Below, piece by piece: positions 5,895-43,188 of a stretch of DNA of 64,000 nucleotides; position 1 is the first letter of the stretch, and every line of letters starts with the position of its first letter. The stretch covers positions 572 through 64,571 of the forward strand of contig JBAZBH010000003.1 in the NCBI GenBank assembly GCA_041671565.1, given 5' to 3'. The position numbers were made by a program, and so were the translations under genes. The DNA comes from Patescibacteria group bacterium (GTDB lineage Bacteria; Patescibacteriota; Patescibacteriia; JACRDY01). Below the pieces are notes generated by a model. It did not search any database. It was not told the DNA's origin and worked only from the letters and a program-made list of their open reading frames with translations.

Positions 5895-6278
5895 ATGAGC
5901 GAAAACGGCGAAAAGAACGGCATAGTTCTTCCATTTCCTAAAAAAGATCAGTCACTTCAAGAAAATGTTGACAGTCAGCAAAGACTTTTAAATAACCAAG
6001 CTTTTTATGTTAGGGTGGAGGAAAAAATTACGAAAGGCGACTATCAATTTTTTGAAAAAATCGATCAATTGCCGGCTGACGCGGAACAGCTTGGACAACA
6101 TGAAAGGTGGTTTTTTGGCAATATTAAGAATAGAAGCAAGGGTGAATTTGATTTATTTCGTTATAGCGGTTTATCTTGGGAAGAATTGGAGAAATTGGAG
6201 GCAGAATTAGCCGCTAGAGAAAAAGAAGTAAAGGTAGTAGAAATTGATTTTAAGAATAAAGGTGAAGCCAATGAATAA
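5895..6278 (+). CDS. hypothetical protein (AT-rich, charged)
   Basis: 127-aa ORF; no recognisable motif. Confidence 0.35.
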   Translation: MSENGEKNGIVLPFPKKDQSLQENVDSQQRLLNNQAFYVRVEEKITKGDYQFFEKIDQLPADAEQLGQHERWFFGNIKNRSKGEFDLFRYSGLSWEELEKLEAELAAREKEVKVVEIDFKNKGEANE

Positions 6279-6690
6279 AAAACTCATCATCTACACCGAC
6301 GGCGGGGCGCGCGGCAATCCGGGGCCGAGCGGCATTGGCGTGGTGATTTATGACGCCCATAAAAAGCCGGTCAAGGAATTCGGCCGGTATATCGGCGAAG
6401 GGACAAATAATCAGGCGGAGTATCAGGCGGTGATTGACGCGCTCGCCGCGGCCGAGAAACTGGGCGCCGAGGAGATTGATTTTTATCTGGACAGTGAGCT
6501 GGTGGTGATGCAACTCCGCGGCGAGTATAAAGTCAAAAACAAGGATCTCGGCTCGCTCTTTGTTAAAGTTTATAATTTAACCGGTAAATTTAAGAAAATC
6601 ACTTACCGCCACATCCGCCGCGAGGAGAACCGCGCGGCCGACCGGCTGGTCAATCAGGCCTTGGACGCGGCGATGACTTCGGGGAAGTAG
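6271..6690 (+). CDS. rnhA: ribonuclease HI
   Basis: IYTDGGARGNPGPSG and NNQAEYQAVIDAL catalytic motifs. Confidence 0.85.
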   Translation: MNKKLIIYTDGGARGNPGPSGIGVVIYDAHKKPVKEFGRYIGEGTNNQAEYQAVIDALAAAEKLGAEEIDFYLDSELVVMQLRGEYKVKNKDLGSLFVKVYNLTGKFKKITYRHIRREENRAADRLVNQALDAAMTSGK

Positions 6691-18679: not shown

Positions 18680-18766
18680 CGGAGAGATCGCATAGTGGTC
18701 TAGTGCGCTCGCTTGGAAAGCGAGTGTGGGGAAACCCACCGGGGGTTCGAATCCCCCCCTCTCCGC
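18680..18766 (+). tRNA. tRNA-Ser (anticodon GGA), long variable arm
   Basis: Cloverleaf by eye: anticodon loop cTTGGAAa, variable arm GTGTGGGGAAACCCACC, T-loop GGTTCGAATCC. Confidence 0.7.
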
Positions 18767-31111: not shown

Positions 31112-31528
31112 ATGTATTTACTGATTAATACCACGGTTAATGACCATTTGCTGCTCGGTTTAGCGGACGCCAAAGGTCGCGTCGTCAGCTGGCAAGGCAA
31201 AGAGGTCGGCCGTGAACAAGCGGAAAAGTTGTTGCCGTTCCTTGACCAGTTGCTCCGCGCGCAAAAGTTAAAGCTAAAAAATCTAAAAGGCATAATCGTG
31301 GTCGCCGGTCCGGGCGGCTTTAGCTCGGTGCGACTGGGTCTGGCGCTCGCTAATACCTTGGGTTATAGCTTAAAAATTCCGGTGATAGGTTTAAAAAGCA
31401 GCCAGTTTCCCGATTTAGAAAGTTTATTTCAAGCGGGGATCAAAAAGCTAATTGGCAAGAAATCGTTCGCCTTTGTTCAGCCATTTTACGGCGCTCCACC
31501 ACGGATTACTAAGCCAATTAAGAGATAG
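31112..31528 (+). CDS. tRNA t6A biosynthesis protein TsaB (YeaZ)-like, short form
   Basis: N-terminal LLINTT..LLLGL and VVAGPGGFSSVRLGLALANTL motif. Confidence 0.5.
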   Translation: MYLLINTTVNDHLLLGLADAKGRVVSWQGKEVGREQAEKLLPFLDQLLRAQKLKLKNLKGIIVVAGPGGFSSVRLGLALANTLGYSLKIPVIGLKSSQFPDLESLFQAGIKKLIGKKSFAFVQPFYGAPPRITKPIKR

Positions 31529-35746: not shown

Positions 35747-35775
35747 TTGACAGAAATATAGTTTTACGCTATGAT
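35747..35775 (+). promoter_or_regulatory. near-consensus promoter TTGACA-17-TATGAT upstream of the DGR target gene
   Basis: Hexamers at 35747-35752 and 35770-35775; AGGAGG ribosome-binding site at 35957-35962 before the ATG at 35970. Confidence 0.5.
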
Positions 35776-35969
35776 AACCAGTTAGTACTTTCAACAAAGA
35801 CAAATTGGTCCTGGCTTTCTTTTGGTTATATTTATACAATAAGTTAATCAAAAGAAGGCCAAGGACAACCCTTTGGCCATTTGTCGTGTCTGTCTGTTAT
35901 TGGCAGTAATATGCTCGGCAATGGGGTCGAGTGTAAAACTGTTTGACAGCAGATGCAGGAGGAAGTCAG

Positions 35970-36584
35970 ATGTCCGATATCACTGTGGAACAGTTGGGCG
36001 AACTTATCGCCCAGGCAAAGTCTAAGGACGGGAAGCCGCCGCGAGTTACTCGCGAAAATCTGCAAACCTTCTTGCGCAATCCAGACGGATTCGTCGCGGG
36101 CGGCACGCAGTATCTCCGTCTCCTCCCAGGCCAGCCGCTCACCATCGGTCCGACCAGCGGTTCCCGAATCATCGCCAATGCGGTCGATGTGTTCAAGGCT
36201 GGTATTGACGGCGATTTCAACAACTGGGGAGTTAACCGACCGGCGAAAGAGACCGAAGAAATGGTGATCAGCCCTCCCTACGAGCTGGTGACCAACGGCA
36301 AATTCGCCGAGATTTTTGGCTCGTTGTCGGCAGACCCGCGCCGACTGTGCTGGACGCAGGACCAGATCATTAAATATGTGGTCACGCACCCTGACCAACT
36401 CGGCGCCAACAGGAACTTTTTTCTGACCGAATCGGGTGGGGAGTTCTTCGTGGTCGATGTGTATGTGTACGACGACGGTCGGCTCAACGCCGATGTCGGC
36501 CGGTTCGACCTTGCCCGTGTCTGGCGCGCCGAGGACCGGCATCGGTTCTTCGCTCCGCAACTGGCGAATCCTTTGGCCGTTTAG
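35970..36584 (+). CDS. DGR target (variable) protein; the variable repeat encodes its C-terminal ~40 residues
   Basis: Last 122 nt of the coding sequence form the VR; good ribosome-binding site; C-terminal FFVVDVYVYDDGRLNADVGRFDLARVWRAEDRHRFFAPQL is the diversified segment. Confidence 0.7.
   Translation: MSDITVEQLGELIAQAKSKDGKPPRVTRENLQTFLRNPDGFVAGGTQYLRLLPGQPLTIGPTSGSRIIANAVDVFKAGIDGDFNNWGVNRPAKETEEMVISPPYELVTNGKFAEIFGSLSADPRRLCWTQDQIIKYVVTHPDQLGANRNFFLTESGGEFFVVDVYVYDDGRLNADVGRFDLARVWRAEDRHRFFAPQLANPLAV
36444..36565 (+). repeat. DGR variable repeat (VR)
   Basis: 122-nt match to 36908-37029 with 16 mismatches, each at a TR adenine (11 A->G, 3 A->C, 2 A->T). Confidence 0.85.
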
Positions 36585-36907
36585 GCCCCTGGACGCTTTG
36601 TCACTCTTTCCCTTGGGCTCTCAAGATGCACATGCACTTGAAGTCCAAGGGATTTTTTTATACAATAACTATGCAGTTTGGAAAATTTGCGGCTACGGCT
36701 TCAAATCAAAACTGTTGAAGATCATTATTCCAGAATTTCGTTGGATATGTCTTGCGAAAGAGTGAAAATGCTTTCCATAATAAAAAACAGCCAGTTGGTG
36801 CCAGCAGCTAGTGGACTTCTATGTCCCAAATAAAATTCAACCCTAAGTCCGTCCGCCAACCGGCGGACGGACAAGGGGCGGTGACTAAAGACGGCTGGTG
36901 GCACATT

Positions 36908-37029
36908 TTCTTCGTGGTCAATGTGAATGTGTACGACGACGGTCAGCTCAACGCCAATGTCAACCGGTTCGACAATGCCAATGTCTGGAACGCCGAGAAC
37001 CGGCATCGGTTCTTCGCTCCACAACTAAC
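36908..37029 (+). repeat. DGR template repeat (TR), rich in AAC/AAT codons in the VR frame
   Basis: Invariant non-A positions and adenine-only differences versus the VR; not inside a credible gene. Confidence 0.85.
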
Positions 37030-37038
37030 TGTTTTCTC

Positions 37039-37422
37039 TCATCTATTATTAGGGGTGGGAGTTTTTTGTAAAAGACCTTTCTTCCACCCGCCCAGCATCC
37101 GACCGATCTCATCTAGTTTTTGAGACAACTCCGTATATTTATCGGTATGGATACATTTGTTTTCCCAAGCCAATTGGATGAAAAATTTCAGAATATCCAG
37201 TCGCGGTATAACCTTACCCAGTCCGACTATTTTTTGTTCTGGCGGCAAGTAGGAAGTGGCATAAGTTAATTCCAGTAAATTAAGAAAAACCGAGTCAATT
37301 TTTTGACCCAGGCCGAAACGCTCTACCTTGGGAAAATTACGATGTAAGACCTGCCAATATTGATAAGCTTCTTTTTCCTTGGTTATTACCACGGGTAATC
37401 CCCGGTTAGTACTAAAAGTCAT
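37039..37422 (-). CDS. avd: Avd-like accessory variability determinant (four-helix-bundle / 23S rRNA IVS protein family)
   Basis: 127 aa; ..YQYWQVLHRNFPKVERFGLGQKIDSVF..LAWENKCI..LSQKLDEIGRMLGGW matches the four-helix-bundle family pattern; lies between the TR and the RT. Confidence 0.6.
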   Translation of the reverse strand: MTFSTNRGLPVVITKEKEAYQYWQVLHRNFPKVERFGLGQKIDSVFLNLLELTYATSYLPPEQKIVGLGKVIPRLDILKFFIQLAWENKCIHTDKYTELSQKLDEIGRMLGGWKKGLLQKTPTPNNR

Positions 37423-38474
37423 ATGAATAAACAGTTAGTTAATTATGATCAAATTATCTCAATAGATAACCTCCTAGCTGCTTGGCGAGGATTTATTACT
37501 GATAAGAAATCACGGCCGGATGTTCAAGAGTTCTCCTTAAAACTGATGGATAATATTTTTCAGCTCCACGACGAATTGTCATCCGGCCGTTATCGCCACG
37601 GCCCTTATTCAACTTTCCATATTTATGACCCTAAACATAGGGTTATCAGCAAGGCATTGGTTAGAGATAGGTTAGTCCACCATGTAGTTTTTAATGAGCT
37701 TTATCGCATTTTTGATCCCGTATTCATTTACCATTCCTATTCTTCCCGGGTCGCTAAGGGCACACATTTGGCGGTTCTTAACTTATTCCATTGCCTGCGC
37801 CAAGTCAGCCATAATTACACCCAGACCGTCTATATCCTCAAATGCGATGTTAAAAAGTTCTTCTGGAGTGTGAATCACCAGAAGCTTTTGGCCATAATCC
37901 AAAACAAAATTAAAGACGAGAAGTTCTTTTGGCTAATCAACGAGATAATAGGTAGTTTTTCGTCGGCAGGTGAAATTGCTAAGGGGGGGGGGGATTAAAG
38001 GGACTGCCCATTGGCAATGCTACTTCGCAGATTTTTGCTAACATATATTTAAATCAACTAGATCAATTTATTAAGCATCGACTTAAAGCCCAGCACTATT
38101 TTCGCTACGCCGATGACTTTGTTATTGTTAATAAAAGTTCGGATGATTTAAACTCCACCTTAACACAAATTAGAGAGTTTTTACAGCGGGAATTATTACT
38201 CGAGCTTCATCCCGGCAAGGTTTCCATTCAAAAGTTTAGGCAAGGCGTAGATTTCCTTGGCTATGTTATTTTGCCGCGTTATCTTGTCCTGCGGACTAAA
38301 ACCAAAAAACGGATGCTAAAGAAAATTCCTTTGAGAAAGTTGGCGTTAGAGCAGGGTTTAATTACCCCAGAATCATTTAACCAATCTTTGCAGTCATATT
38401 TGGGAATTTTAAAGCACTGCCGGGGACGCAAGATAGAGCAAATAATACGGAGAATTATTGATTTACAGCCATAG
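37423..38474 (+). CDS. DGR reverse transcriptase, reading frame interrupted by a +1 shift at an 11-G tract
   Basis: RT motifs across two frames: RHGPY..FHIYDPKHRVIS..RDRLVHH (frame 1) then GLPIGNATSQIFANIYLNQLD and YFRYADDFVIV (frame 0, to 38474); the two frames join at the G11 run at 37983-37993. Confidence 0.75.
37983..37993 (+). repeat. poly-G homopolymer (11 nt) inside the RT gene
   Basis: 9 or 12 G would give a continuous ~350-aa RT; 11 G truncates it after ...IAKGGGD. Confidence 0.9.
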
Positions 38475-39617
<1,143 letters not shown>

Positions 39618-39644
39618 GAATGTCGGTATCCGGTGTTTAAACCT

Positions 39645-39772
39645 CTAACCACGGTTAAAATGCCCAATGACCAAATCCCAATGTCCAATCAATGCCCAAT
39701 GACCAAAGGTGGTAATTGGACATTGGTCATTGAAATTTGATTGGTCATTGGAGCTTGGGCATTGGGCATTAT
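39645..39772. repeat. intergenic palindromic repeat, ccaatgacc family
   Basis: See 5741-5875. Confidence 0.5.
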
Positions 39773-39896
39773 TCTTAAATTTTTTCTATAAAAAAACCGC
39801 CCTACGGCCATCCGCGGGGTATTTTTAGTTAGTCCGCCAAGTTACCGCCGGTCGGCTATTTAAAGTTCGCTCTTTTTGTGTTAAAATAAAATCGCC

Positions 39897-40265
39897 ATGA
39901 AAAGTCAAAATCTACTCTTACTTTCAGGTAAATTTATCGCCAAAGACATCGTTGGTAATGTTTTATATTGGCCAGTTTGGTGGTATTCCGCCGGACTGGC
40001 GATTTTTGTTAAAGAGCGCTGGCAGAGCCTGCGGGATTTTGAAGGTGAAGTGGGGCTGACAGTTTGGATTGTTAACTGGTTCAAGCCAATGTATGGCGAG
40101 TCAGATCTGGTTGGCAAGGCGATCAGTTTTGTCATGCGGACGGTGATGATTGTTTTTAAGGCTTGGCAAATCGCGCTTTATTTCTTTTGCCAGGTGGCGG
40201 TGGTGGCTATCTGGCTACTTTTGCCGCCGGTCGCGGTTTGGCAGGTGGTTAAAGGGTTGATTTAA
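39897..40265 (+). CDS. hypothetical small membrane protein
   Basis: Three hydrophobic segments; no family recognised. Confidence 0.35.
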   Translation: MKSQNLLLLSGKFIAKDIVGNVLYWPVWWYSAGLAIFVKERWQSLRDFEGEVGLTVWIVNWFKPMYGESDLVGKAISFVMRTVMIVFKAWQIALYFFCQVAVVAIWLLLPPVAVWQVVKGLI

Positions 40266-40267
40266 AT

Positions 40268-40395
40268 AAGTATTCAGGGATCAGTATTCAGTATTCAGGG
40301 AACTATATCCGCGAACGGTGAATTTGAATCCCTCCCTGATCCCCGAATACTGTTCCCTGAATACTAATGCTTGAATACTGTTCCCTGAATACTCA
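40268..40395. repeat. palindromic repeat, gaatactgttccctgaatact family (copy 2)
   Basis: See 13965-14060; immediately upstream of the clpC-like gene. Confidence 0.65.
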
Positions 40396-40401
40396 TTCAA
40401 T

Positions 40402-43188
40402 ATGGTTGATAAAATTCAAAAATCCAACTTCTTCCCCGTGGTCTGCCCCGACTGCGGCGGGCGCGGTTGTCCCGGTTGCCATGAACTGGGCCTGCTTTAC
40501 TGGTATTCTGACCTGGACCCGGACCAGCCGGAGCAGTATATTCTGGCTTGGCATAAAGCGATTGACTGGCAGCATATCGCAGGGCGCCAGATCGAGTTTT
40601 GGTTTATCAAAATTGTCAGTTTTTTACTCTTGGTTTTTGGCGCTCTGGGGCTGATCGCCGGCCTCTGGTGGCTCGGTGAAATAATTATCTCGCCGGGTTT
40701 AAGTTTATCCGACCAGCTGGATTTTTGGGGCAAGAGGGAATTCGGCGGTGACGGCCGAGTGGAGTTTTTTTGGCTCAGTATTCTCATTGATTTATATTCA
40801 TATTATCGCTATGCCCGAGCGAGCCGAGTCAGAAGCCAGGTGATTAAAAAAGTTTGGCATGAGGGCGCGCCGGCGGTTGAGGGCGCGGCGCTGGCGGCGC
40901 CGGCTTGGTCCACGGTGGTTGATTCTCCAGCCGAGAAGATTGATATTAGTTTAAGTTATGATCCGGAAGCGCTGAAAGCCGTGGAGCAAGCTTGGCGGAT
41001 TGCCAAAAACTGGCATCACGCCGAAGTTTTGCCGATTCACCTTTTGGCCGGATCTTTTAGCAGTAAAAAGCTGGGGGTGATTTTTGGCCGGTTGGGCGCG
41101 GACTGGGAAAAGTTGGCAAGTGGAGTTAAAACCACTTTAAGCAAAATTCCCCGCGGAGCGGCTAGCCCGGTCCTCTCACTTAGCTTTAAAAAAGTTTTGT
41201 TTGCCGCTTATCAAGAAGCCTACCTGGGGCGCCAAGCTAAGGTGACGATCGCCGAACTTTTGATGGCGATTGACAGCGAGAAAAGCTCGGCCGCGAGCCT
41301 GCTTTATAATCTGGAAATCGAAAACGACCAAATCCGCAATGTCGTGGTTTGGCTGCAGATTAATGATAAATTGCGTCGCCAGTGGCAGAAATATCATCGC
41401 CTGGGCCATCGGCGGCCGCGGGGCGAGGTCAACAAGTCCTATACCGCCGTGATGACCCAGTATTTGGACAAATTTGCCGTTGATTTGACGCGCCAGGCCG
41501 CTTACGGGCTGTTTCCGGCGAGCATCGGCCAGGAAGAGGAAATTGATGAAGTTTTCCGGGTTTTACAGGGCAGCAGCGAGAGTGTGATTTTGATTGGTTG
41601 GGCGGGCGTGGGCAAGACGACAATTCTCGAAGAAATTGCCCAGCGGATGATTGCCGACGAAGTGCCAAAAATTCTGCAAGATAAAAGGCTAGTGTCGCTG
41701 AGTGTGCCGAAATTGACGGCCGGCGCCACGCCGGCGGAAGCCAATCAGCGGCTCCTGCGGATTTTCGATGAAATCCAGCGCGCCGGCAATGTGATTTTGG
41801 TGATCGAAGAAGTGCATGATTTGGTCGGCATCTCCACCGGCACCGAAGAAAGCTTGGATCTCGCCGAAGCGTTAATCAATTATTTAGCCAAATACCGAGT
41901 TTCCGCCATTACCACCACCACACCCAAAGATTACAGTTATTTGGAAGCGAAAACCAGCCTCGGCAATTATTTACATAAAATCACTGTTGACGAACCGCAG
42001 GGCAATGAGGCGATTCAGATTGTGGAGAGCCGGATCGGGCCGATTGAATACACCAATAAAGTTTTCTTTTCTTATGCCGCGGTAGCCGCCTCAGTCACTC
42101 TTTCCACCCGCTATATCCATGAGCGGTATCTGCCGGCAAAAGCGATTGATCTTCTGAAAGAAGCGGCCGTCCAAACCGCCGGCAGCCGTGGCCGTGGCGC
42201 GACCGTCATGCCCGAAGATGTGGCTTTGGTAGTTTCACAGAAAACCAAAATTCCCCTGACTAAAATCGGCGCCGCGGAGTCCAAAAAACTGGTTAACCTG
42301 GAAGCGGAAATCCATGAGCGGATGGTGGACCAAGCCGAGTCAGTCAAAGAAGTGGCGGCGGCGCTCCGCCGGGCGCGCGCCGGTCTCCGCGACCAGAAGC
42401 GGCCGATTGCCAATTTTCTGTTCCTCGGCCCCACCGGCGTCGGCAAAACCGAGCTCGCCAAAACCATTGCCGAAGTCTATTTTGGCAGTGAAACCAACAT
42501 GGTCCGTTTAGACATGTCCGAATATCAAACCAAAGAAAGCCTTTACCGCTTGATCGGCGCGCCCACCGGCGAGCAGGCCGGCGGTTATCTGACCGAGGCG
42601 ATTCGCCGCCAGCCCTTTGCTTTGGTGCTTTTTGACGAAGTAGAAAAGGCGCACCCGGATATTCTTAACTTGTTTCTCCAAGTCATGGATGACGGCCGCC
42701 TGACTGACAACGCTGGGCGGACGGTGGACTTTACCAACGCGATTATTATCATGACCTCGAATGCCGGCACCAAATATATTCAGGAGCAAGTTAAGGCCGG
42801 CGTGGATATGGCAGCGATCAGAGCCGAGATGATCAATAACCGCCTCGGCGAGTTCTTCCGGCCGGAGTTTCTCAACCGTTTTGACGCCATCAATGTCTTT
42901 AAACCGTTAACCATCGCCGAGGTCAATCAAATTGCCAGTCTAATGATCAAAAAAGCCGCCAAGAATCTCCTGCAAGACGGGGTGGAGTTAGAGGTGACTC
43001 CAGCCGCGGTCGCTGAGCTCGCCGCCGCCGGCTTTGACCCGCAATTCGGCGCCCGGCCGCTCCGCCGCGTGATTCAGGAGCGGATTGACAATACGCTTGC
43101 CAATTTGAAATTGGAAAATAAGTTTAAAAGGGGGGACAAGGTGGTGTTTGATGTTGGGGGGAAGGTGGAGGTGGTGGGAGGGAATTAA
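40402..43188 (+). CDS. Clp/Hsp100 AAA+ chaperone (ClpC/ClpB-like, two nucleotide-binding domains) with an N-terminal zinc ribbon and transmembrane segments
   Basis: CPDCGGRGCPGC; two hydrophobic helices; Clp-N repeats; Walker A GWAGVGKTT and GPTGVGKTELAK; sensor and C-terminal D2-small domain. Confidence 0.75.
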   Translation: MVDKIQKSNFFPVVCPDCGGRGCPGCHELGLLYWYSDLDPDQPEQYILAWHKAIDWQHIAGRQIEFWFIKIVSFLLLVFGALGLIAGLWWLGEIIISPGLSLSDQLDFWGKREFGGDGRVEFFWLSILIDLYSYYRYARASRVRSQVIKKVWHEGAPAVEGAALAAPAWSTVVDSPAEKIDISLSYDPEALKAVEQAWRIAKNWHHAEVLPIHLLAGSFSSKKLGVIFGRLGADWEKLASGVKTTLSKIPRGAASPVLSLSFKKVLFAAYQEAYLGRQAKVTIAELLMAIDSEKSSAASLLYNLEIENDQIRNVVVWLQINDKLRRQWQKYHRLGHRRPRGEVNKSYTAVMTQYLDKFAVDLTRQAAYGLFPASIGQEEEIDEVFRVLQGSSESVILIGWAGVGKTTILEEIAQRMIADEVPKILQDKRLVSLSVPKLTAGATPAEANQRLLRIFDEIQRAGNVILVIEEVHDLVGISTGTEESLDLAEALINYLAKYRVSAITTTTPKDYSYLEAKTSLGNYLHKITVDEPQGNEAIQIVESRIGPIEYTNKVFFSYAAVAASVTLSTRYIHERYLPAKAIDLLKEAAVQTAGSRGRGATVMPEDVALVVSQKTKIPLTKIGAAESKKLVNLEAEIHERMVDQAESVKEVAAALRRARAGLRDQKRPIANFLFLGPTGVGKTELAKTIAEVYFGSETNMVRLDMSEYQTKESLYRLIGAPTGEQAGGYLTEAIRRQPFALVLFDEVEKAHPDILNLFLQVMDDGRLTDNAGRTVDFTNAIIIMTSNAGTKYIQEQVKAGVDMAAIRAEMINNRLGEFFRPEFLNRFDAINVFKPLTIAEVNQIASLMIKKAAKNLLQDGVELEVTPAAVAELAAAGFDPQFGARPLRRVIQERIDNTLANLKLENKFKRGDKVVFDVGGKVEVVGGN

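Follow-up and report, generated by a model that had tools for sequence, protein, structure and literature searches.

We analyzed a stretch of 64,000 nucleotides (nt) from a Patescibacteria group bacterium (positions 572 to 64,571 of contig JBAZBH010000003.1, assembly GCA_041671565.1; hereafter the window), which carries a diversity-generating retroelement (DGR) whose reverse transcriptase (RT) gene is interrupted by a run of 11 Gs (Table 1). The element has the defining features of a DGR: an RT that belongs to the DGR clade once its frame is repaired, a template repeat (TR) and a variable repeat (VR) whose differences are confined to adenines, and an avd gene beside the RT. The gene order is target gene with VR, TR, avd (on the minus strand) and RT, and the same arrangement of avd and RT is found in the related loci L163, L247, L249, and L251 (loci of relatives bear L numbers and their protein clusters P numbers). 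TR and VR differ at 14 positions, 14/14 of which are adenines in the TR, out of 28 in the TR core. Since the second copy has A at all 14 differences, it is the TR and the first copy is the VR. Adenine-specific mutagenesis has operated on this element in the past. No Pfam match was found for the target gene.

The RT frame breaks at ATTGCTAAGGGGGGGGGGGATTAAAGGGACT (37975-38005), which includes the 11 Gs. Frame 0 reads ...GEIAKGGGD from the ATG and then meets TAA at 37996-37998 (GGG GAT TAA directly after the tract), yielding a product of 191 amino acids (aa). Frame +2 (equivalently −1) is open from the first G, reads GGGGLKGLPIGNATSQIFANIYL...YADD..., continues past the tract as GGGGLKGLPIGNATSQIFANIYLNQLDQ...YFRYADDFVIV..., and ends at TAG 38472-38474; it contains no ATG, GTG, or TTG before 38271, and the real C-terminal segment amounts to ~163 codons. 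When the tract length was altered in silico, 9 Gs produced a single open reading frame (ORF) of 349 aa and 12 Gs one of 350 aa, while 10, 11, and 13 Gs produced proteins of 205, 191, and 206 aa. The Pfam RVT_1 match of the 12-G product spans the tract (residues 71–283, E=6e-24). Reading both frames and varying the length in this way bore out the initial annotation, which had reported 11 Gs, a change of frame at the tract, and restoration of an RT of ~350 aa by 9 or 12 Gs. Its further statement that the 191-aa and 67-aa ORFs are the two halves of one gene holds in part: the RT is one gene in pieces, but the listed 67-aa ORF (38271-38474) is the tail of the second half and nothing more.

The tract is the only G or C run longer than 7 nt in the window. 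The next-longest G run is 6 (four cases), runs of C do not exceed 7 (as at 18753-18759), those of A and T do not exceed 8, and no dinucleotide repeat of five or more units occurs in the 64 kb. Given this uniqueness, and an expectation of 0.02 G runs of 11 or more per window under an order-0 model, the tract is not a chance event. Like the repeats of known contingency genes, it is perfect, exceeds the instability threshold, and lies within an ORF whose frame is altered by changes in unit number.

With 12 Gs, and in that reading only, the RT displays motif 4 (GLPIGNATSQ) and YADD, in agreement with the DGR-clade patterns [IL]GxxxSQ and YxDD. The closest proteins are RTs labelled Patescibacteria (candidate phyla radiation, CPR), with 50-75% identity, and the nearest solved structure by sequence is the Bordetella DGR RT (bRT; 8ub7, E=2e-41). 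An AlphaFold model of the 12-G protein, computed with 48 homologs in the alignment, has a predicted local distance difference test (pLDDT) score of 89, and its best fold match is again 8ub7 (template modelling score 0.80/0.84, 31% identity). That alignment, of 48 sequences (A1), contains 48 invariant columns, located on both sides of the tract, and the window RT keeps all 48 residues. With these residues retained and the frames open on either side, the RT is undamaged apart from the frame break and lacks the marks of a pseudogene; a very recent inactivation is possible.

The tract site corresponds to an 11-residue gap relative to bRT in the alignment, and model residues 181–190, which form the tract loop, have a mean pLDDT of 55. 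Across 120 aligned homologs, this insert is highly variable in both length and sequence. It follows the conserved ..SF.. after motif 3 and precedes the G[LI]P[IL]GN of motif 4, and many homologs carry GGGG, RERERE, or SLSLSL within it. The loop that contains the tract, between RT motifs 3 and 4, is flexible and tolerates different lengths.

Table 1. Features of the DGR in the window, and repeat tracts in related loci (positions in related loci are those of the respective locus).
Feature	Sequence	Position	Strand	Remarks
DGR target gene, 213-aa ORF	window	35943..36584	+	called 204 aa from 35970 in public assemblies
VR, 3' end of target gene	window	36444..36562	+	119-nt direct repeat
TR	window	36908..37026	+	119-nt direct repeat, 88% identical to VR
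bAvd accessory gene, divergent from RT	window	37039..37422	-	Pfam PF22296, E=7.8e-15
RT N-terminal segment, frame 0, 191 aa	window	37423..37998	+	RT motifs 1-3; aligns to bRT 8ub7 from residue 8
G11 homopolymer, proposed slipped-strand switch, present state OFF	window	37983..37993	+	same G11 in ERZ27249449 k141_464877 and Logan SRR18595301 contig
RT C-terminal segment, frame +2 (-1)	window	37983..38474	+	motif 4 GGGGLKGLPIGNATSQ, YADD motif 5, thumb; without own start
Loop repeat, poly-G 8-12	L050, L064, L066, L072, L163, L247-L251			
Loop repeat, (AG)7-13	L060, L083, L084, L100, L104, L127, L134, L135, L142			
Loop repeat, (CT)14-21	L062, L081, L132			
RT split at loop repeat	L050, L062, L064, L066, L127, L132, L135, L142			
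RT in frame at loop repeat	L060, L072, L083, L084, L100, L104, L134			
avd/RT junction tract	L005	2965-2973		
avd/RT junction tract	L008	2963-2972		
avd/RT junction tract	L009	2969-2978		
avd/RT junction tract	L016	2962-2973		
avd/RT junction tract	L021	2965-2975		
avd/RT junction tract	L023	2957-2976		(GT)10
avd/RT junction tract	L117	1454-1463		
avd/RT junction tract	L118	1456-1463		

We compared this loop with its counterparts in relatives, whose DNA was drawn from 185,579 species-representative genomes and from JGI metagenomes. The search patterns lay downstream of the tract site, which makes detection independent of reading frame, and the frame state of each locus was taken as the distance from motif 3 to motif 4, modulo 3. 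Loop peptides of relatives were found to be encoded by perfect repeats of three kinds, poly-G, (AG)n, and (CT)n. The frame-blind scan yielded 15 distinct loci with a long loop repeat, eight of them split at the repeat and seven in frame. Frame-split RTs thus make up 8/15 of the loci with a repeat versus 0/137 of those without (Fisher p=1e-9), and the eight are a lower bound since the ranking of matches favors unsplit genes. Among 77 phage-type DGR RTs from IMG/VR, none had a repeat or a split at the loop site. One pair excepted, nucleotide identity among the repeat-bearing loci is below 85%, and one repeat-bearing contig (L072) is labelled archaeal; judged by sequence comparison, the loop repeat is spread over many lineages, comprising at least 15 diverged CPR/DPANN relatives. 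Because the encoded peptides differ (GGGG, RERERE, SLSLSL), the common feature is the repeat and not the peptide. Elsewhere, long G/C and dinucleotide repeats are nearly absent, with four in 773 kb of flanking DNA.

The ortholog L247 has the window's flanks around an in-frame G12 (..GGGGLKGLPIGN) and encodes ..AVGGGGLKGLPIGN, identical to the 12-G reading of the window. We also noted that closely related RTs of clusters P0014, P0034, and P0026 share the flanking residues KRKIHDEKFLRLIEEIISSFASP and differ in the loop repeat, which is (AG)n-encoded ERER in some and G-run-encoded GG in others, a pattern suggestive of a fixed site at which one repeat motif replaces another.

At the homologous site, relatives display the length polymorphism that is characteristic of contingency genes. 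L163 (JGI) has G8 and an intact RT of 341 aa (ON), whereas L164, L165, and L166, from three ENA assemblies, have G9 and a split RT (OFF); the sequences are identical over 1.2-2.9 kb, TR and VR included, with the exception of that single G. Likewise, L062, a GenBank Uhrbacteria metagenome-assembled genome, has (CT)16 and a split RT, L081 (ENA) has (CT)14 and an intact RT of 400 aa, and the two align over 4.5 kb with 0 mismatches and one gap. Another contig with (CT)14, L082, differs from L062 by 3 mismatches and one gap, and L132 provides a third allele, (CT)21. No TR/VR direct repeat was detected upstream of the RT in L062 (1-3100) or L081 (1-2600) of this (CT)n Uhrbacteria lineage, reflecting either a collapse of VR and TR in assembly or a real deletion of the TR; positions 1-60 of L132 are an A-rich, TR-like copy of the VR-like L062 2447-2504.

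Protein clusters formed at 90% identity provide the same picture, in that full-length RTs occur alongside N- and C-terminal halves that lie on long contigs, each form recurring. The (AG)n cluster P0037 includes full-length proteins of 341-356 aa and halves on up to 25 contigs (one C-terminal half occurs on 25), and cluster P0065 includes intact (ER)5 and (ER)6 forms together with a split pair annotated as the adjacent genes OGE82740/OGE82741. The poly-G-type homologs examined were all singletons in this clustering. Clusters with at most five repeat units (P0007, whose locus L001 has (AG)5, and P0015) contained no split members. The OFF alleles of relatives occupy both alternative frames. Some ON alleles differ by whole codons, as in (ER)5 versus (ER)6 and 400 versus 402 aa, a hint that tracts pass through OFF states and return.

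Our interpretation, to which we assign a probability of roughly two in three, is that slipped-strand mispairing at the tract turns DGR mutagenesis ON and OFF and that G11 is the OFF setting. We favor it because repeats recur in the loop, splits are confined to repeat-bearing RTs, and near-identical contigs differ in repeat length. The same comparison lends strong support to the hedged proposal of such a switch in the initial annotation, and the Gly run that it had proposed to look for in orthologous DGR RTs is present, as the in-frame G12 of L247 and the GGGG of other homologs exemplify. We infer ongoing switching of this tract, together with its reversibility, frequency, and selection.

The proposed switch would operate as follows. 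Slipped-strand mispairing during replication would add or remove Gs. With 12 (or 9) Gs, the full-length RT would be made, the tract being read as a Gly-rich stretch in the loop, and RT and Avd would copy TR RNA into the VR of the target gene with adenine-specific errors. With 11 Gs, and also with 10 or 13, translation would stop shortly after the tract and before motif 4; a 191-aa fragment lacking motif 4 and the YADD catalytic motif would be expected to make no cDNA, leaving the VR frozen. Mutagenic retrohoming in Bordetella BPP-1 requires both RT and Avd, and hence an OFF tract should freeze the VR. The assembled state would be OFF, one G short of the G12 in ortholog L247, and lineages would toggle heritably and reversibly between a diversifying and a locked state.

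Several observations weigh against this interpretation. We located other assemblies by exact-sequence look-up of the window Avd and the 191-aa RT fragment. An ENA contig in MEGAHIT style (ERZ27249449 k141_464877) is 100% identical to window 36722-40998, a Logan SRR18595301 contig is 100% identical to 35759-38001 and ends 8 nt past the tract, and a Logan SRR6484324 contig matches 36690-37955 and ends 28 nt before it. All three spanning assemblies (the window, k141_464877, and SRR18595301), which are consensus sequences and may share reads, have G11, so that no length polymorphism or tract-length variant was seen in this species; the Avd and RT-fragment look-ups returned G11 contigs and no in-frame allele, and a look-up of the neighboring TGT protein returned nothing on record. 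A search of 5.8 billion proteins gave no full-length product at 90% identity or above and nothing above 75%, a weak negative given that the 191-aa fragment is also unlisted. The window and the SRR18595301 contig have the same VR, as expected of the OFF state and equally of a dead element. Finally, high indel rates at repeats yield OFF alleles even without selection for switching. As a separate observation, the Logan contigs L254 and L253/L256 end at window positions 37955-38001, flanking the tract; contig breaks at such places would be expected of a homopolymer that is branching (heterogeneous) or poorly covered.

The first rival explanation is non-adaptive decay, which we consider unlikely. 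Here the loop merely tolerates low complexity, repeats are mutational hot spots, and G11 marks a young pseudogene with no selected switching. The uniform G11 of this species and the unchanged VR would follow naturally; OFF alleles of relatives are at least as frequent as ON alleles, as mutation pressure alone predicts, and the apparent absence of the TR in the L062 lineage indicates that some such DGRs may be decaying. Against this, we found no second lesion in RT, avd, or TR. Moreover, tracts of three different motifs have stayed perfect at this one loop in at least 15 diverged lineages, although synonymous interruptions (GGA/GGT) should be favored if OFF were simply harmful, and such repeats are scarce in the window and its flanks. 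The whole-codon differences among ON alleles also speak against decay, as they hint at tracts that enter OFF states and return.

A second rival, which we regard as improbable, is that G11 is functional and is recoded, with transcriptional slippage or −1 ribosomal frameshifting on GGG GGG providing a fixed low level of RT. Indeed, the shift needed is −1, the Gly run re-pairs perfectly, the zero-frame stop falls two codons past the tract, and programmed frameshifting has been invoked for a phage DGR RT that occupies three overlapping frames (PMC8008677). We nevertheless rejected a programmed frameshift as the main explanation: no stimulatory RNA structure was detected downstream (z=-0.28), in-frame alleles exist among relatives, whose OFF alleles are found in either alternative frame and also at dinucleotide repeats, unlike the single conserved direction of a recoding site. 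The locus thus does not have the marks of a programmed frameshift or of transcriptional realignment, while leaky slippage at G11 on top of a DNA switch is possible.

The alternative of a sequencing or assembly error, raised at the outset, in which the true genome would have 12 (or 9) Gs and an intact RT, draws on the error-proneness of long G homopolymers on several platforms and on the G12 of ortholog L247, but it is improbable, since the identical G11 in two further assemblies (which may share reads with that of the window) makes a one-off error unlikely and the OFF alleles of relatives recur in many independent assemblies. We also rejected general sloppiness of the assembly; window genes are long and intact (up to 928 aa), and Pfam searches of adjacent gene pairs revealed no pair that belongs to one family or looks like a split gene. 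A poly-G artefact of two-colour chemistry was rejected as well, the tract being internal, coding matches lying on both sides, and relatives using (AG)n or (CT)n. Selection for the peptide itself (a Gly linker or a charged RE repeat) is unlikely given three unrelated peptides and codons that are always perfectly repetitive, and a role in polypurine-tract priming was dropped because (CT)n variants place pyrimidines in the mRNA.

A second repeat site was found at the head-to-head junction of avd and RT. In many CPR DGRs without a loop repeat, this position, 15-45 nt upstream of the first conserved RT motif, is occupied by a run of 9-12 Gs or by (GT)n, (TG)n, or (GA)n (Table 1, and some 40 more loci). 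Read on the avd strand, the tract is poly-C and encodes Pro-Pro-Pro at about codons 8-10, as in L005, whose avd begins MKNFLSTPPPEGFEAPLIH; it also lies in the 5' end of the RT, and RT proteins of this junction class begin MHQR.....GGG....IISLENL or are called as MGGG.... L117 (G10) and L118 (G8) show 0 mismatches over 3.9 kb apart from the tract, and one protein cluster of the class has three N-terminal frame states. Of 32 loci, only 8 have the presumptive avd start in frame, and 20 have a tract that exceeds the in-frame length by one nt; this excess may reflect a preponderance of the OFF state, a bias towards insertion, or +1 frameshifting at CCC-C. In the window itself, no long repeat tract was found at the avd/RT junction; the avd start (CAT on the plus strand, 37420-37422) abuts the RT ATG with zero intergenic bases. 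As the two starts are directly adjacent, the promoters of both genes must sit within the partner's coding sequence.

Long tracts were also observed at other positions in or near DGR loci. A G11 lies inside the L128 RT (1228-1238), ~170 nt upstream of motif 4, a G14 lies 400 nt upstream of the RT in L147 (1099-1112), and long G or (GA)n tracts lie at L044 1547-1572 and L056 4105-4118. These may represent further switch positions. We give even odds to the broader proposition that repeat switches, at the RT motif 3-4 loop or at the avd/RT junction, are a general, selected control layer of CPR/DPANN DGRs.

Two further observations were made outside the DGR. To our knowledge, DGR RTs have no RNase H domain; the window contains a stand-alone RNase H-like gene (6244-6690, plus strand; RVT_3 / RNase_H, E=5e-22). 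A 138-aa ORF (31112-31528, plus strand), which is followed by a 536-aa ORF without a Pfam match, matches only positions 25-90 of the 264-position TsaD/TsaB profile and may encode a short TsaB-like protein.

If repeat switches are indeed a general control layer of CPR/DPANN DGRs, targeted hypermutation would be a stochastic, heritable, and reversible trait, with a contingency locus governing a diversity generator, and diversifying cells would live side by side with locked ones in natural populations. It should be costly to diversify a receptor or binding protein without restraint once it works, and a repeat switch in the RT (possibly also in Avd) would be a simple way to regulate DGR mutagenesis, with most cells holding a frozen variant and a small, constantly regenerated subpopulation exploring sequence space. 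On the practical side, gene callers and DGR finders that demand the RT as one intact ORF will overlook many CPR DGRs or label them wrongly, as exemplified by OGE82740/OGE82741, RT pieces recorded as half-length "hypothetical proteins". Repeat switching may also bear on surveys that score DGR activity by VR diversity (PMC8144416).

The mechanism itself is that of a classical intragenic poly-G contingency locus, and the element is a standard CPR-type DGR of B3 architecture. Poly-G/C tracts of at least 7 number 29 in C. jejuni NCTC11168 (PMC4965091), and a G tract switches a pilus in Bifidobacterium breve (PMC9187656). As at the contingency loci of Campylobacter jejuni, Neisseria, Haemophilus, and Helicobacter, a perfect homopolymer of 8-13 lies within an ORF, one-unit indels toggle translation, alleles differ by tract length alone, and such tracts are rare elsewhere. 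Those loci mostly control surface structures or restriction-modification in host-adapted bacteria, whereas the gene in question here is a hypermutation RT of an environmental CPR bacterium; furthermore, the window tract lies mid-gene, in a loop of the catalytic domain, and not near the 5' end.

In comparison with the Bordetella BPP-1 DGR (8ub7), the window element shares the RT fold, motif 4 of the form GxPxGxxxSQ, YxDD, a bAvd partner, adenine-only differences between TR and VR, and a VR at the 3' end of the target gene. However, bRT is a single ORF with neither loop insert nor repeat, and the CPR gene order, with avd on the opposite strand, is the B3 architecture (PMC5758913), unlike that of BPP-1. 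The DGR RT of Quimbyvirus occupies three overlapping frames, which were read as two programmed translational frameshifts by authors who note that other DGR RTs had been predicted to be one ORF each (Benler et al. 2021, PMC8008677). In both Quimbyvirus and the CPR elements, the RT is not a single ORF and the DGR shows signs of adenine mutagenesis; no repeat or length polymorphism was reported for Quimbyvirus, whereas in CPR in-frame and out-of-frame alleles coexist and differ by repeat length alone.

Changes in tandem-repeat copy number in Salmonella mutL constitute a repeat-controlled mutator switch, and phase-variable mod methyltransferases underlie phasevarions. The proposed DGR switch resembles both in that a repeat would toggle an enzyme altering many downstream molecules or the supply of mutations, making it a second-order switch (for phasevarions, see PMC10123105). 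The switched activity differs: here it would be site-specific retroelement mutagenesis of one gene, as opposed to methylation or genome-wide mismatch repair. A full-text literature search, which did not cover the CPR survey of Paul et al. 2017, found no paper linking a DGR RT or Avd with repeats or phase variation, and within the literature searched Quimbyvirus is the only reported case of a DGR RT spread over more than one ORF. What appears to be new is that the proposed repeat switch sits within the RT of the DGR itself, and seemingly also in avd, and recurs across CPR lineages.

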